DNA of 64,000 bases from Escherichia coli (GTDB taxonomy: Bacteria > Pseudomonadota > Gammaproteobacteria > Enterobacterales > Enterobacteriaceae). Location: NCBI RefSeq assembly GCF_017348835.2, contig NZ_CP071375.1; one strand, 5' to 3'. Positions 1,821 to 50,978 of this stretch are shown one piece after another. Position 1 is the stretch's first letter. Each line of letters begins with the position of its first letter. The position numbers were made by a program, and so were the translations under genes. The notes under the pieces were generated by a model. It ran no database searches and was not told the DNA's origin. It saw nothing but the letters and a program-made list of their open reading frames with translations.

Positions 1821-4796
<2,976 letters not shown>

Positions 4797-4797
4797 A

Positions 4798-5486
<689 letters not shown>

Positions 5487-6644
5487 TCAGGATGCGGGGA
5501 TAACCAACGGTTTATTCCCGCTTAGCTCGGTCACCAGATCATTGATGCCATCGCTCATATTTTTAAAGCGCGTCAACGGCGAACGAGTGACCACCACAAA
5601 CGCGCCAATATTCTTCTGTGGGATCATCGCCATATAGGTAATGAAACCGCCACCACCACCTGTCTTCTGAATAATCCCCGGACGACCCTCTTTCGGGGCC
5701 ATATATACCCAGCCTAAACCAAGCGCATCCGCTTTGCCGGGGACATCCATGCCAATCACTTTCGTAAACTGCGCGCGCTGATAAATCAACGTCTGCATGC
5801 GATCTGCCTGGTTACTGCGCTGATAAAAATCAGATGACAAATACTGCTGCATCCAGCGCATCATATCGCCAGGCGTGGAATAGACGCCGCCGCTGCCAAT
5901 TGCCGCCAGCGTGTTATTGCACGGACTGGCACCGCGCTCAGCAACCATTAAACGGCGGCACTGATCCGGTGAGGGGGTGTAGGTGGTGTCTTTCATCCCC
6001 AATGGACGGGTAATCTGCTCTTCAAACAACTGGGTATAAGGCTTGCCGGACGCATTCGCCAGTGCATCTGCCAGCAGGTCGAACGCAAGGTTAGAGTACG
6101 CCGCCTGACTGCCTGGCGCGGCTTTCAGCTTCGCCGTAGAAAGGTATTTCCAGCGTTGCTCGCGCGTTGGCCAGACAAACACCGGACGATGTGCCGCGCC
6201 ACCGGGCTGTTCACGGGGCAGGGCGCTGGTATGGGTTGCCAGATTGACCAGCGTAATGGGCGTCCCATTGTAGGTTGGCACGCGTGCGCCTGGCGGAGCA
6301 TATTTACTTAGCGGATCGTTTAACTTCACGGTCCCCTGGTCGAGCAATTTCACCAGCATCTCACTGGTCATTAGCTTGGTGAGGGAAGCAATACGCACGA
6401 CCGAATCCAGCTGCGGGCGAACGTTATTACCAGGTCGCGTTTCGCCATAACTGCGAAAGACGCGCTGGTTACCGTCGATAACAACCAGCGCCATCCCCGT
6501 GGCACCGCTTCCGTAAAAAATATGATCGGCATAACGATCGACAATATCAGAGGCAAACTCCGGTTCAGTGATCGGCTGCGCCGCATGGACGGAGGTCAAT
6601 GACGCCGCACACAGCACGGCAGAAAAAAGCAGACTACGTTTCAA
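5487..6644 (-). CDS. ampH: Penicillin-binding protein AmpH (class C beta-lactamase-like DD-peptidase)
   Basis: 385-aa ORF with signal peptide and SxxK-type motif (IASLTK); conserved synteny. Confidence 0.9.
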   Translation of the reverse strand: MKRSLLFSAVLCAASLTSVHAAQPITEPEFASDIVDRYADHIFYGSGATGMALVVIDGNQRVFRSYGETRPGNNVRPQLDSVVRIASLTKLMTSEMLVKLLDQGTVKLNDPLSKYAPPGARVPTYNGTPITLVNLATHTSALPREQPGGAAHRPVFVWPTREQRWKYLSTAKLKAAPGSQAAYSNLAFDLLADALANASGKPYTQLFEEQITRPLGMKDTTYTPSPDQCRRLMVAERGASPCNNTLAAIGSGGVYSTPGDMMRWMQQYLSSDFYQRSNQADRMQTLIYQRAQFTKVIGMDVPGKADALGLGWVYMAPKEGRPGIIQKTGGGGGFITYMAMIPQKNIGAFVVVTRSPLTRFKNMSDGINDLVTELSGNKPLVIPAS

Positions 6645-44900: not shown

Positions 44901-45131
44901 ATGCGCAAAATTACCTCAGTAAGCGTTGGCGAACAATTAGATAGTTTTATTACCCGGATGGTCCAGTCTGGTCGTTATGGCTCGGCCAGTGAAGTAATGC
45001 GTTCGGCACTTCGTCTATTGGAACAACAGGAATCCAGGGATGAAGCTGTCAGAAATGCTGTTATTGAAGGTCTTGAGAGCGGTGAAAGTTCGATGACGCT
45101 TCGTGATATCGCAGCAGAAAGGAAGCAATGA
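44901..45131 (+). CDS. parD: ParD-like RHH antitoxin (COG3609-type), C-terminus replaced by an IS629 end (last 4 codons lost, stop supplied by the IS terminus)
   Basis: SVSVGEQLDSFITRMVQSGRYGSASEVMRSALRLLEQQE...GLESGES matches the ParD/CopG-like antitoxin pattern; stop TGA at 45129-45131 is the first 3 nt of the IS inverted repeat. Confidence 0.8.
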   Translation: MRKITSVSVGEQLDSFITRMVQSGRYGSASEVMRSALRLLEQQESRDEAVRNAVIEGLESGESSMTLRDIAAERKQ

Positions 45132-45155
45132 ACCGCCCCGGGTTTCCTGGAGAGT
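45129..45155. repeat. IS629 copy A terminal inverted repeat (right end)
   Basis: TGAACCGCCCCGGGTTTCCTGGAGAGT. Confidence 0.85.
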
Positions 45156-45170
45156 GTTTTATCTGTGAAC

Positions 45171-46058
45171 TCAGGCTGCCAGATCATTATTTCCGATGGA
45201 AGCATAATAAGCTTTTTCTGCTTCTGCCGGAGGAATATGGCCCAGCCTTTCCAGCAATCGTCGATTGTTATACCAGTCCACCCACGTGAGTGTGGCCAGT
45301 TCCACTTCTGTCCGGTTTTTCCAGCTCTTACGGTGTATTACCTCCGCTTTGTAAAGACCATTGATGCTCTCAGCCATCGCGTTGTCATACGAGTCGCCAG
45401 TACTCCCTGTTGATGCCAGTAATCCGGCTTCCTTAAGCCGCTGCGTGTAGGCCAGCGATACATACTGAGAACCTTTATCACTGTGATGGATTGTGCCGGA
45501 CGGCCGACGGGCCCACAACGCCTGCTCCAGTGCATCCAGCACGAATGTTGTTTCCATGGATGATGAGACCTGCCATCCCACGATGTATCCGGCGAACACA
45601 TCAATGATGAACGCCACATAAACGAAGCCCTGCCATGTGCTTACCCAGGTAAAATCAGCCACCCACAACTGGTCTGGACGTTCTGCCACGAACTGACGGT
45701 TTACGCGGTCGCATGCGGCAACGGCTTTCCGGCTGACGGTAGTGCGGACCTTTTTACCCCGGAGAACACCGGCAAGTCCCATAACTGCCATGAGACGTGC
45801 CACAGTGCATCTGGCCACTCTGATACCTTCCCGTAACAACTGACGCCAGACTTTACGCACACCGTATACCTGGTGATTTTCATCGTATACGCGCTGTATC
45901 TCTTTCTTCAGCCAGTCATCGTGCTGCGCACGGGCACTGCGTTTATCCGGATGATGTCGCTGTTGCTGACAATGGTAATACGTTGACGGGGCAATATGCA
46001 GTTCGCTGCATACCGGTCCGCCCCCGTACTGCTCACGCAGCTTATCCAGCAGTGGCAT
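45171..46058 (-). CDS. IS629 transposase OrfB (DDE catalytic domain)
   Basis: 295 aa in -1 frame relative to orfA; integrase-core DDE region (ADFTWV...HHSDKGSQY...DNAMAES). Confidence 0.9.
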   Translation of the reverse strand: MPLLDKLREQYGGGPVCSELHIAPSTYYHCQQQRHHPDKRSARAQHDDWLKKEIQRVYDENHQVYGVRKVWRQLLREGIRVARCTVARLMAVMGLAGVLRGKKVRTTVSRKAVAACDRVNRQFVAERPDQLWVADFTWVSTWQGFVYVAFIIDVFAGYIVGWQVSSSMETTFVLDALEQALWARRPSGTIHHSDKGSQYVSLAYTQRLKEAGLLASTGSTGDSYDNAMAESINGLYKAEVIHRKSWKNRTEVELATLTWVDWYNNRRLLERLGHIPPAEAEKAYYASIGNNDLAA

Positions 46059-46384
46059 TATTTTTTCCAGAGGCGGTCGAACTCCGCCTTCGCAAAATAA
46101 GCGGAAGCCTGGCGAAGGATATCGTTACTGCGGCGCAGTTCACGATTTTCACGTTCCAGCTCTTTCAGACGCTGACGTTCAGCGGTGGTGAGTCCACCAT
46201 CACCACTCCCGGTATCCCGCTCATGCTGGCGAACCCAGACACGCAGAGTCTCCGGCGTACAGCCAATCTTTGGGGCAATGGAACAAATTGCCGTCCACTG
46301 TGAGTCATATTCATCCTGACTTTCCAGAACCATACGAATCGCCCGCTGACGGACTTCGGGGGAAAAACGAGTATTTTTAGTCAT
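46058..46384 (-). CDS. IS629 transposase OrfA (HTH)
   Basis: 108 aa [23 protein letters not shown]...; IS3-family OrfA with leucine-zipper-like C-terminus. Confidence 0.9.
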
Positions 46385-46411
46385 CCTGTTTACCTCTTTC
46401 TCAGGGAGTTT

Positions 46412-46438
46412 AGTCTCCAGGATTTCCGGGGCGGTTCA
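46412..46438. repeat. IS629 copy A terminal inverted repeat (left end)
   Basis: Reverse complement reads TGAACCGCCCCGGAAATCCTGGAGACT. Confidence 0.85.
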
Positions 46439-46449
46439 GCAAAAACATC

Positions 46450-46731
46450 GTGTATAAGCTTAGCGGAAAAGCTGTTGAAGATTTCAGAGGGATCTATGAC
46501 TACACGCTGGGAAAGTTTGGTGAGGAGCAGGCGGATCGCTATACCGACTCTCTCGGCACTTTTCTGGATACACTCTCTCAAATGCCCGAGATAGGGCAAG
46601 ACTATGATGCGATTCCAGAGGTAAAGAAGATCGCATTTAGGTTTCACACTGTTTATTACGTTATAAGAGTCGATGACATTCTCATTGCGCGCATTCTTCA
46701 TCAGTTGATGGAACCTCGCCGTCACTGGTAA
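46450..46731 (+). CDS. parE: ParE-like toxin (RelE/ParE superfamily), intact but separated from parD by IS629
   Basis: GTG start; YKLSGKAVEDFRGIYDYT...FHTVYYVIRVDDILIARILHQLMEP matches conserved ParE N- and C-terminal motifs. Confidence 0.8.
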   Translation: MYKLSGKAVEDFRGIYDYTLGKFGEEQADRYTDSLGTFLDTLSQMPEIGQDYDAIPEVKKIAFRFHTVYYVIRVDDILIARILHQLMEPRRHW

Positions 46732-46818
46732 TGTGAGAATTTCTTGACTCAGGATTGCGAAAATCCCCGCATCTTGGGAAACTGCGCGTAACCCTACATT
46801 TCATCCAGGTAACTTTTC

Positions 46819-47166
46819 ATGGCTATCATCCCAAAAAACTATGCGCGGTTAGAAAGCGGCTATCGCGAAAAAGCATTAAAAATATATCCGTGGGTCTGCG
46901 GTCGCTGTTCCCGCGAGTTTGTTTATTCCAACCTGCGTGAACTTACTGTTCACCACATTGATCACGACCATACCAATAACCCGGAAGATGGCAGTAACTG
47001 GGAATTGCTTTGTCTCTATTGCCACGATCATGAGCATTCGAAATATACCGAAGCGGATCAGTATGGTACGACCGTTATCGCAGGGGAAGATGCGCAGAAA
47101 GATGTCGGTGAAGCGAAGTACAACCCATTCGCTGACCTGAAAGCGATGATGAACAAGAAGAAGTGA
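46819..47166 (+). CDS. yajD: HNH-nuclease-family protein YajD
   Basis: 115 aa with HNH/Zn motif (CGRCSREF...HHIDHDHTNNPEDGSNWELLCLYCHDHEH). Confidence 0.9.
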   Translation: MAIIPKNYARLESGYREKALKIYPWVCGRCSREFVYSNLRELTVHHIDHDHTNNPEDGSNWELLCLYCHDHEHSKYTEADQYGTTVIAGEDAQKDVGEAKYNPFADLKAMMNKKK

Positions 47167-47181
47167 TTAAAACGTAAAATT

Positions 47182-47280
47182 GCCTGATGCGCTACGCTTA
47201 TCAGGCCTACGTTATTTCAGCAATATATTGAATTTACGTGCTTTTGTGGGCCGGACAAAGCGTTTACGCCGCATCCGGCA
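47182..47280. repeat. REP element pair (BIME-like) between yajD and tsx
   Basis: GCCTGATGCGCTACGCTTATCAGGCCTAC and GGGCCGGACAAAGCGTTTACGCCGCATCCGGCA. Confidence 0.8.
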
Positions 47281-47312
47281 TGAACAAAGCGCACGTTGTT
47301 AACAATCAGAAA

Positions 47313-47340
47313 TGCCGGGAATAAATCCCGGCATTTTCAT
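47313..47340. terminator. Hairpin between convergent yajD and tsx (possible bidirectional terminator)
   Basis: ATGCCGGGAATAAATCCCGGCAT followed by TTTTCAT on the plus strand. Confidence 0.6.
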
Positions 47341-47342
47341 AA

Positions 47343-48227
47343 TCAGAAGTTGTAACCTACTACCAGGTAACCACCCCAGCCGGTAGAGCGAACGTTGAAG
47401 TTGCCGTTGCCGAAGTTCAGTTCTGCATCGTCGTTCCACTGACCACCGTCGTGCCAGTAACGAGCTACGACAGAGTAGTGCCAGTGATCATAGTTCAGAG
47501 CCAGAATATGGCTGGAAGCGATAGAGTTATTAGTACGGGTCTTAATACCGTTGATTGCGTTACCGCTGTCATCCCCTAAATCGGAACCCCAGTCGAAGTT
47601 GGTGAAGCCGATGTAGCTCAGCTGACCGCCCCACAGATCGGTAATCGGCACAAAGTATTTAATTTTGAAACGGTAACCGTCCCACTCGTTTTCGTTCGCT
47701 GCGCCATAGTTCTGCCACTGGTATTTCGCATAGACGTTCATGGACAGACTCATCGGCAGACCAGTATCGATGTCGGTACCCAGACCCATGTACCAGGTGC
47801 TCTGGCGACCATCTTTATTACGACCCATGTCGTAAATGTAGTTGTTCGCGAAGTACCACTCTTTGAACGGACCGAAGCTAAGGTCAGTATTGGTCAGCTT
47901 GTCGATGGAGAAACGTGGTTCGATTTCCATAAACAGCGGAGAACCGTGGTTCCAGATACCTTTTGCATCGGAGTTACCGCCGAAGAATACCGGCGCATCC
48001 GCATAACCATAGAAGTCGAACCAGTCTTTTTTAGCGAATGCTTCGTACTCAAGGTAGGTATCGTTGCGGATCTGCGGTCCGAAACGGGTGTGATAGCTTC
48101 CGACAACGTTAACGCTCTGGTGCCACCAGTCGGAAAGATACTGCGGTTTGTCGTTTTCAGCTGCGTTGACAGTAAAAGACGAAGAGAGCGCCAGTACCGC
48201 ACCGGCTGCCAGTAATGTTTTTTTCAT
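47343..48227 (-). CDS. tsx: Nucleoside-specific outer membrane channel Tsx (phage T6 / colicin K receptor)
   Basis: Start at [22 protein letters not shown] (294 aa); C-terminal ...VVGYNF beta-barrel signature. Confidence 0.95.
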
Positions 48228-48525
48228 ATGTATGCCACTGTTTGAAAATCCCTTGCGGGAGTGAAAAAGGCGCAAATTGCGTTTCTAAATATTTCGTATA
48301 CAGAGGAGCCTATTATAAAAATCATTGCTCACAAAAATATGTTTCGTTTCACAGTTCTATCATTTACGTAATCGATTGCGTTCACGTTTACACACATTCG
48401 GGCGGGGATTGTACTGACTTTCGCCCTTGTTGCAAACTTTTACTATCAATCTGGGTTATGTAAGCGGAGTAACAAAATGATGGGGAAGGATGTTGCGGGA
48501 CGCACAAAATCGCCCCGCTATACGT

Positions 48526-48819
48526 TTACTGCATAACAGGTTGAATGTCGTGGATACGTACAAAGCCTAACTGATCCACAGAAATCCCCTTTAACTGTAA
48601 CGGAATATCAACATCGCTGGGGGCGAGGACGCTGGCAGGGGCATTAATCAATTGATTCTGCACATTGATTTCCTGAAAGTTGTCTATTGTTCCCTGAATT
48701 TGCCCATATTCAACGGTTCCGCTGAATGCGGGCAAGGGATCATTCGACTCGCCCTGAATACGTAGCGTCAGGGTGGTGCCATCTGTATCAGGCGTAATAT
48801 TCACCAGCGACATACGTAA
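48526..48819 (-). pseudogene. yajI: yajI lipoprotein gene, C-terminal fragment (3' part of the gene split by IS629 copy B)
   Basis: Reading frame continues without a stop across the IS boundary; joins in frame with the N-terminal fragment at 50130-50378 through the duplicated TAA/Leu codon. Confidence 0.8.
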
Positions 48820-48846
48820 TGAACCGCCCCGGAAATCCTGGAGACT
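48820..48846. repeat. IS629 copy B left terminal inverted repeat
   Basis: TGAACCGCCCCGGAAATCCTGGAGACT. Confidence 0.85.
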
Positions 48847-48873
48847 AAACTCCCTGAGAAAGAGGTAAACAGG

Positions 48874-49200
48874 ATGACTAAAAATACTCGTTTTTCCCCC
48901 GAAGTCCGTCAGCGGGCGATTCGTATGGTTCTGGAAAGTCAGGATGAATATGACTCACAGTGGGCGGCAATTTGTTCCATTGCCCCAAAGATTGGCTGTA
49001 CGCCGGAGACTCTGCGTGTCTGGGTTCGCCAGCATGAGCGGGATACCGGGAGTGGTGATGGTGGACTCACCACCGCTGAACGTCAGCGTCTGAAAGAGCT
49101 GGAACGTGAAAATCGTGAACTGCGCCGCAGTAACGATATCCTTCGCCAGGCTTCCGCTTATTTTGCGAAGGCGGAGTTCGACCGCCTCTGGAAAAAATAA
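48874..49200 (+). CDS. IS629 transposase OrfA
   Basis: 108 aa; differs from copy A OrfA at one residue (A vs T); ends in an A6 run next to the orfB start. Confidence 0.9.
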
Positions 49201-50087
49201 TGCCACTGCTGGATAAGCTGCGTGAGCAGTACGGGGTCGGACCGGTATGCAGCGAACTGCATATTGCCCCGTCAACGTATTACCATTGTCAGCAACAGCG
49301 ACATCATCCGGATAAACGCAGTGCCCGTGCGCAGCACGATGACTGGCTGAAGAAAGAGATACAGCGCGTATACGATGAAAATCACCAGGTATACGGTGTG
49401 CGTAAAGTCTGGCGTCAGTTGTTACGGGAAGGTATCAGAGTGGCCAGATGCACTGTGGCACGTCTCATGGCAGTTATGGGACTTGCCGGTGTTCTCCGGG
49501 GTAAAAAGGTCCGCACTACCGTCAGCCGGAAAGCCGTTGCCGCATGCGACCGCGTAAACCGTCAGTTCGTGGCAGAACGTCCAGACCAGTTGTGGGTGGC
49601 TGATTTTACCTGGGTAAGCACATGGCAGGGCTTCGTTTATGTGGCGTTCATCATTGATGTGTTCGCCGGATACATCGTGGGATGGCAGGTCTCATCATCC
49701 ATGGAAACAACATTCGTGCTGGATGCACTGGAGCAGGCGTTGTGGGCCCGTCGGCCGTCCGGCACAATCCATCACAGTGATAAAGGTTCTCAGTATGTAT
49801 CGCTGGCCTACACGCAGCGGCTTAAGGAAGCCGGATTACTGGCATCAACAGGGAGTACTGGCGACTCGTATGACAACGCGATGGCGGAGAGCATCAATGG
49901 TCTTTACAAAGCGGAGGTAATACACCGTAAGAGCTGGAAAAACCGTGCAGAAGTGGAACTGGCCACACTCACGTGGGTGGACTGGTATAACAATCGACGA
50001 TTGCTGGAAAGGCTGGGCCATATTCCTCCGGCAGAAGCAGAAAAAGCTTATTATGCTTCCATCGGAAATAATGATCTGGCAGCCTGA
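49200..50087 (+). CDS. IS629 transposase OrfB (DDE)
   Basis: 295 aa; -1 frame relative to orfA and open upstream of its ATG; 3 aa differences from copy A (V13G, A/T near the C-terminus, R/L). Confidence 0.9.
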   Translation: MPLLDKLREQYGVGPVCSELHIAPSTYYHCQQQRHHPDKRSARAQHDDWLKKEIQRVYDENHQVYGVRKVWRQLLREGIRVARCTVARLMAVMGLAGVLRGKKVRTTVSRKAVAACDRVNRQFVAERPDQLWVADFTWVSTWQGFVYVAFIIDVFAGYIVGWQVSSSMETTFVLDALEQALWARRPSGTIHHSDKGSQYVSLAYTQRLKEAGLLASTGSTGDSYDNAMAESINGLYKAEVIHRKSWKNRAEVELATLTWVDWYNNRRLLERLGHIPPAEAEKAYYASIGNNDLAA

Positions 50088-50102
50088 GTTCACAGATAAA
50101 AC

Positions 50103-50129
50103 ACTCTCCAGGAAACCCGGGGCGGTTCA
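50103..50129. repeat. IS629 copy B right terminal inverted repeat
   Basis: ACTCTCCAGGAAACCCGGGGCGGTTCA. Confidence 0.85.
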
Positions 50130-50378
50130 TAAAGTACCGATCTGGCTTTCCAGTCTTGCCGGTGTTTTCGCTTCAGGCAGAAGGTAAACCCCACTGCTGG
50201 ATTTTGCATTCAGCCTGTTTTGCTGAGTGATTTTGACCGTTTCTTTATTGAGTTGCGTCATCTCCTGGTTCAGCGTGCTGACGCTGTGTTTCATCTGTCG
50301 CACTTCGCTTTGCTGCACACAGGCGCTAAGGCTGAACAGGCTTCCCAGCAGGAGCAGTCGAAAAACGTTAGTATTCAT
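50130..50378 (-). pseudogene. yajI: yajI lipoprotein gene, N-terminal fragment (signal peptide plus lipobox LSAC), truncated by IS629 copy B
   Basis: MNTNVFRLLLLGSLFSLSAC...; stop codon is supplied by the IS terminus (TGA at 50127-50129 on the minus strand). Confidence 0.8.
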
Positions 50379-50492
50379 AGGTCGTCCCTTTCTCGTCGCA
50401 ATTAGCCTAATGGTAGAGGGTAAAAGCAGCGAAAGCATCGATCCTTTATCTCAAAAGCGTTGCGCCTTTGTTGTATCGTCAGTTCAGGGTAA

Positions 50493-50978
<486 letters not shown>

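Follow-up and report, generated by a model that had tools for sequence, protein, structure and literature searches.

The window, by which we mean the whole 64,000-nt stretch of DNA analyzed here, carries a yajI gene that lies between tsx and nrdR-ribD and is split by a complete IS629-type element (table 1). K-12 shares the gene order tsx-yajI-nrdR-ribD, and this context of yajI has also been described in the literature, where yajI and tsx are reported not to share an operon (PMC3953254). YajI is a paralogue of the Salmonella lipoprotein SadB, has no known function, and comprises a predicted N-terminal coiled coil and a C-terminal beta-sandwich domain (PMC3953254). The original prediction, made from the letters of the window, was that yajI had been divided by an IS629-type element flanked by a 3-bp TAA duplication; the boundaries, both TAA copies, and the identity of the element to named IS629 copies all bear this out.

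Table 1. Features of the interrupted yajI locus and of the second IS629 copy (positions in the window)
Feature	Position	Strand	Basis or remarks
Second IS629 copy in the window	45129-46438	-	Flanks 44901-45131 and ~46440-46780; 5 mismatches to the copy in yajI
yajI C-terminal fragment, codons 83-179 and stop	48526-48819	-	Translation and alignment; RefSeq DUF3251 pseudogene lacking the N-terminus
Target-site duplication TAA, left copy, 3 bp	48817-48819	.	Single TAA in empty sites
IS629-type element, complete, IS3 family, 1310 bp, TG...CA ends	48820-50129	+	Inside yajI
Left terminal inverted repeat of the yajI IS629	48820-48844	+	Comparison of IS ends
orfA, 108 aa, HTH_Tnp_1 domain	48874-49200	+	Open reading frame and domain match
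ALIL pseudoknot, frameshift-stimulating RNA of IS3-family elements	49155-49271	+	Rfam RF01497, full length
A6 run, putative -1 frameshift site giving an OrfAB fusion	49192-49197	+	Just before the orfA stop
orfB, 295 aa, DDE integrase core	49200-50087	+	Pfam rve, HTH_21, rve_3
Right terminal inverted repeat of the yajI IS629	50105-50129	+	Last 3 bases are TGA on the yajI strand
Target-site duplication TAA, right copy, 3 bp	50130-50132	.	Single TAA in empty sites
yajI N-terminal fragment, codons 1-83	50130-50378	-	Translation and alignment; RefSeq DUF3251 pseudogene lacking the C-terminus

The N-terminal fragment of yajI translates to 83 amino acids ending in QIGTL and is closed by a TGA codon that is the reverse complement of IS bases 50127-50129. 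A signal peptide, a lipobox whose cysteine is Cys20 (L-S-A-C, residues 17-20), and the predicted coiled-coil region all lie in it; the first two, read from the translation as MNTNVFRLLLLGSLFSLSAC, are the same as in K-12 YajI. The C-terminal fragment, translated on the minus strand from 48819 to 48526, reads LRMSLVNITPD...PVMQ followed by a stop codon; it opens with the duplicated Leu83 codon TTA (48819..48817) and has its first ATG at 48813. The junctions of the occupied site are ACATACGTAA/TGAACCGCCCC and GGGGCGGTTCA/TAAAGTACCG, whereas TAA occurs once in F2_81 and K-12, whose empty sites have the sequence ...ACATACGTAAAGTACCG...; chance repetition of the triplet (1 in 64) is thereby excluded, and the duplication is genuine. 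When the IS and one TAA were removed in silico, a yajI gene of 540 nt encoding 179 amino acids was obtained, and its product agrees with F2_81 YajI at every residue (100% identity) and with K-12 YajI at 98%. Profile and structure matches for this protein are Pfam DUF3251 (PF11622, 5.5e-89), NCBIfam PRK11530 (316.7 bits, cut-off 158), and PDB entry 2JWY, named 'lipoprotein yajI' (uncharacterized lipoprotein YajI; 6.4e-97).

Aligned with intact YajI, the two fragments correspond to residues 1-83 and 83-179, share Leu83 as their sole overlap, show 98-99% identity to K-12, and are thus contiguous parts of one protein, the opposite of the outcome that would have refuted the original prediction. The predicted details of the junctions, namely an N-terminal fragment with signal peptide and lipobox that ends in QIGTL at a stop donated by the IS, a C-terminal fragment opening with LRMSLVNITPD, and a duplicated TAA that reads as a Leu codon on both sides (TTA, the whole of codon 83), agree with these translations. 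The prediction that precise excision would restore an intact 179-aa gene also stands, as the rebuilt sequence is identical to the intact F2_81 allele. The description of the reading frame as preserved across the duplication is right in that the duplication coincides with codon 83, but the two halves lie 1313 bp apart and are not in one frame in the genome, because this offset leaves a remainder of 2 on division by 3. In this sense frame preservation is trivial, since precise excision of any simple insertion restores its gene.

The ends of the element in yajI are set by the second copy in the window, with which the alignment spans exactly positions 1-1310 with 5 mismatches. Its terminal repeats are imperfect, agreeing at 22 of 25 positions (TGAACC... 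versus ...GGTTCA). OrfA shares 106 of 108 residues with OrfA of the IS629 on pO157 Sakai, and orfB lies in the -1 frame relative to orfA, with the overlap at the A6 run; a programmed frameshift is annotated at this transposase by RefSeq. The pseudoknot scores 120.3 bits against a gathering score of 50 (RF01497, E = 1e-31). In OrfB, the second D and the E of the DD(35)E motif are separated by 35 residues as counted from the translation, and the transposase matches Pfam rve (E = 8.8e-25), HTH_21 and HTH_Tnp_1, as well as the NCBIfam IS3 transposase model transpos_IS3 (312.6 bits, cut-off 160). Ungapped alignments over 1310 nt give 99.2% identity to the element of phage BP-4795, named IS629 by its depositors, and 95.6% to the IS629 of pO157 Sakai. 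It is known that IS629 subtypes differ from one another by 4-5% and that their target duplications are 3-4 bp long (PMC3271280). The name IS629 is therefore justified by the anatomy of the element together with its 95.6-99.2% identity to copies bearing that name.

IS629 belongs to the IS3 family, has the isoforms IS1203 and IS3411, and is found in E. coli O157:H7, O103 and O26 and in Shigella; its type sequence is said to come from Shigella sonnei and to have been reported by Matsutani and Ohtsubo in 1990. The window element resembles the IS629 copies of O157:H7, O103, O26 and Shigella in its length of 1310 bp, its imperfect TG...CA repeats, and its predicted -1 frameshift between orfA and orfB, and, again as in known IS629, it shows the ALIL pseudoknot, a DDE transposase, and a target duplication within the 3- or 4-bp range. 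Its subtype is nearest to the copies of BP-4795 and O103:H2 (99.2-99.9%), and the pO157 Sakai copy is more distant (95.6%). The host is a porcine O108:H9 strain instead of an O157 strain, and there is no difference in kind. As all parts needed for transposition are seemingly intact, the copy in yajI is probably active.

The second IS629 copy is flanked by a 4-bp GCAA duplication, and GCAA is single in the empty site. It lies in the 3' end of the parD antitoxin gene and shortens ParD from 80 to 76 amino acids, with a TGA at the edge of the IS serving as the stop codon, as it does in yajI; the element also puts 1.3 kb between parD and the parE toxin gene. The parD site is empty in F2_81. Truncated ParD is present on at least 24 contigs, with index entries in 30 blocks, which exceeds the number for truncated YajI, and one draft genome carries both truncated products. 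Because truncated ParD occurs on more public contigs than truncated YajI, the parD insertion is probably the older of the two, with the yajI insertion nested within it. The two inverted copies (45129-50129) bracket 2.4 kb that contain parE, yajD, tsx, and the 3' part of yajI. In this arrangement the pair resembles a composite transposon and a substrate for inversion; the genes stand in the order seen in F2_81, which shows that the segment has not been rearranged. The pair could act as a composite unit that inverts, deletes, or moves these 2.4 kb.

Over 2101 nt around the yajI insertion, the window shows 100% identity to the chromosome of E. coli PE164 (NZ_CP114128.1; pig, Nanjing), which has been described as a hybrid aEPEC/ExPEC strain of serotype O108:H9 from a piglet (PMC12233904). 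The rebuilt locus of 788 nt has no mismatch to that of the Australian pig isolate F2_81 (100% identity), and about 34 kb around the insertion are collinear with F2_81, differing by about 10 substitutions and a few indels, with no deletion or inversion. Among 5426 complete E. coli genomes, PE164 is the only one with the IS629-type element at this position of yajI. An exact look-up of the 83-aa truncated product identified 12 contigs elsewhere, from one NCBI draft genome and several Logan runs. Of the five contigs examined first, four run from ...GGTACTTTA into the right end of IS629 and the fifth breaks off at the junction itself. In three contigs, whose flanking sequence reaches 7.5-10 kb, there are 1-2 SNPs or indels relative to the window, and these differences of their own indicate that they come from different isolates. 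For comparison, the exact intact yajI allele is present on 79 contigs, against 10 listed for the truncated 83-aa product. The 95-aa C-terminal ORF was also tried as a probe for the left junction and was uninformative, because its exact sequence occurs on at least 1000 contigs and is common to many yajI alleles.

Interruption of yajI is not confined to this lineage. Uninterrupted yajI is found in 5081 of the 5426 complete E. coli genomes, and about 340 (~6%) are without it; in each of three genomes sampled from these ~340, the break falls at nt 130 of yajI. In KTa008 (about 4411-6160 of locus L006) and ECE204 (about 4411-6159 of locus L007), the interrupting sequence is an element of the IS200/IS605 family; its tnpA has decayed, and its tnpB, which encodes an RNA-guided endonuclease, is intact. 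These cases are like the window in that a mobile element disables yajI and the remains are annotated as two DUF3251 pseudogene halves, but they differ in the element family and in the position (nt 130), and the interrupted state is far commoner (~340 of 5426 genomes, three of them examined). A further case was found in CUPF12 from pig faeces in Thailand, in which an IS629 of a different subtype (2632-3941 of locus L002) interrupts yajI near codon 12 and is flanked by a CTT duplication. This element is 96.3% identical to the window copy and has the same orientation, and its insertion is independent of the one in the window.

The structure of the locus could in principle reflect an error of assembly, by which a multi-copy IS was misplaced inside yajI in PE164. 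About 30 places in PE164 match the IS (32 for the 2101-nt query), and such repeats often cause misassembly. However, the same junction between yajI and the right end of the IS recurs on 12 contigs of other public assemblies, the first five of them 100% identical to the window across the flank and the three with longer flanks bearing SNPs of their own; moreover, the duplication of 3 bp is perfect and the flanks rejoin as an exact intact allele. As independent contigs share the junction, we rejected an artefact, which we regard as extremely improbable. Homologous recombination between the copies at 45129-46438 and 48820-50129, leading to inversion or deletion, also deserves consideration, as the two are 99.6% identical, inverted, and only 2.4 kb apart. 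An inversion would have swapped the target duplications between the copies, yet each copy is flanked by a matching pair (TAA/TAA and GCAA/GCAA), and F2_81, which is without both copies, has the intervening segment and the two outer flanks in the same order and on the same strand. The matching duplications and this collinearity led us to reject recombination between the copies too, and its probability is likewise negligible. A single simple transposition of IS629 into codon 83 of yajI in an O108:H9 lineage is thus almost certainly the origin of the locus.

It might also be supposed that the insertion is adaptive, with selection acting for loss of YajI, for the truncated coiled-coil lipoprotein, or for transcription running outward from the IS to nrdR-ribD. 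The gene has been broken at least three separate times (by IS629 at codon 83, by another IS629 subtype at codon 12, and by an IS200/IS605-TnpB element at nt 130), about 340 of the 5426 complete genomes lack an uninterrupted copy, and the insertion described here persists in several non-identical isolates. Repeated hits are, however, also expected for a dispensable gene without known function in IS-rich genomes, and 5081 of the 5426 genomes have kept yajI uninterrupted. A promoter and terminator scan of 48200-50600 picked out 2 promoter-like sites, no more than chance would give (2.5 expected); neither lies in the IS or in yajI, and the scan lends no support to an outward promoter effect. An adaptive insertion at this site therefore seems very unlikely to us, and we consider it improbable, too, that yajI has been disabled repeatedly because its loss was favoured, and not just tolerated, in some animal-associated E. 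coli lineages.

Under a simple transposition, an intact IS629-type element would have entered codon 83 of chromosomal yajI in an E. coli O108:H9 lineage in one event. The transposase would have made a staggered cut at TAA, the repair of which would have duplicated the triplet; flanking DNA was neither lost nor rearranged. Residues 1-83, with the signal peptide, the lipobox, and the predicted coiled coil, are now closed by the TGA of the IS and parted from the C-terminal beta-sandwich domain. As the latter is left with neither promoter nor export signal, full-length YajI can no longer be made.

The function of YajI is likely lost, because the IS parts the export signal and the coiled coil from most or all of the beta-sandwich domain. 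The original prediction spoke of a clean insertional inactivation, and it is correct that the gene is split; loss of function is the likely consequence of the split instead of an observed one, since an 83-aa fragment with a signal peptide could still be made. Indeed, a truncated lipoprotein of 83 amino acids may be produced from the intact native promoter, signal peptide, and lipobox, and translation might conceivably begin at the ATG at 48813 and yield a C-terminal fragment confined to the cytoplasm. The neighbouring genes are presumably unaffected by the yajI insertion. No phenotype is predictable, because YajI has no known function (PMC3953254).

The use of the insertion as a lineage marker, as originally predicted, is supported by its distribution. 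F2_81 has the empty site, whereas PE164 and 12 other contigs have the insertion, and of the 12 the three long enough for comparison are not identical to the window. Given this rarity (1 of 5426 complete genomes plus 12 contigs, some non-identical), the evidence supports yajI::IS629 as a marker of a small pig-associated sub-lineage. The expectation that the insertion would be datable goes too far: it can be bracketed as later than the split from F2_81 (~10 SNPs in 34 kb), but this bracket does not give a measurable age. It is probably also later than the more widespread IS629 insertion in parD. The approach is like IS-printing of O157, which tells close strains apart by whether a given chromosomal site carries an IS629 (PMC3271280); the yajI site differs in being absent from the published O157 typing sites and in belonging to another lineage. 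The IEE protein promotes excision of IS629 (PMC9943667), and such excision could erase the marker.

In the RefSeq annotation, the site appears as two pseudogene halves of a "DUF3251 domain-containing protein", an "IS3 family transposase", and an ALIL pseudoknot. The paper on PE164 (PMC12233904) mentions neither insertion sequences nor yajI, and of three literature matches for IS629 together with yajI, the two examined were false, caused by the author name 'Yajima'. The insertion is an ordinary knockout by a well-known IS and is already flagged in public annotation. Its main value is that the site separates a porcine O108:H9-like sub-lineage, including the hybrid aEPEC/ExPEC strain PE164, from relatives such as F2_81, and that the more widespread parD insertion and the yajI insertion form a nested pair of IS markers. 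It is also a further sign that natural strains can do without yajI, which is conserved, encodes a lipoprotein of solved structure, and has no known function. Beyond strain typing, the insertion is of little importance.

Two other differences between PE164 and F2_81 were observed. At about 55129, a pentapeptide-repeat gene shows a 5-T length difference between the two strains and is frameshifted in the F2_81 annotation. At about 37074-38590, in the acpH/malZ interval, the hypothetical protein gene LZG51_RS18545 is frameshifted in the PE164 annotation and intact in F2_81.
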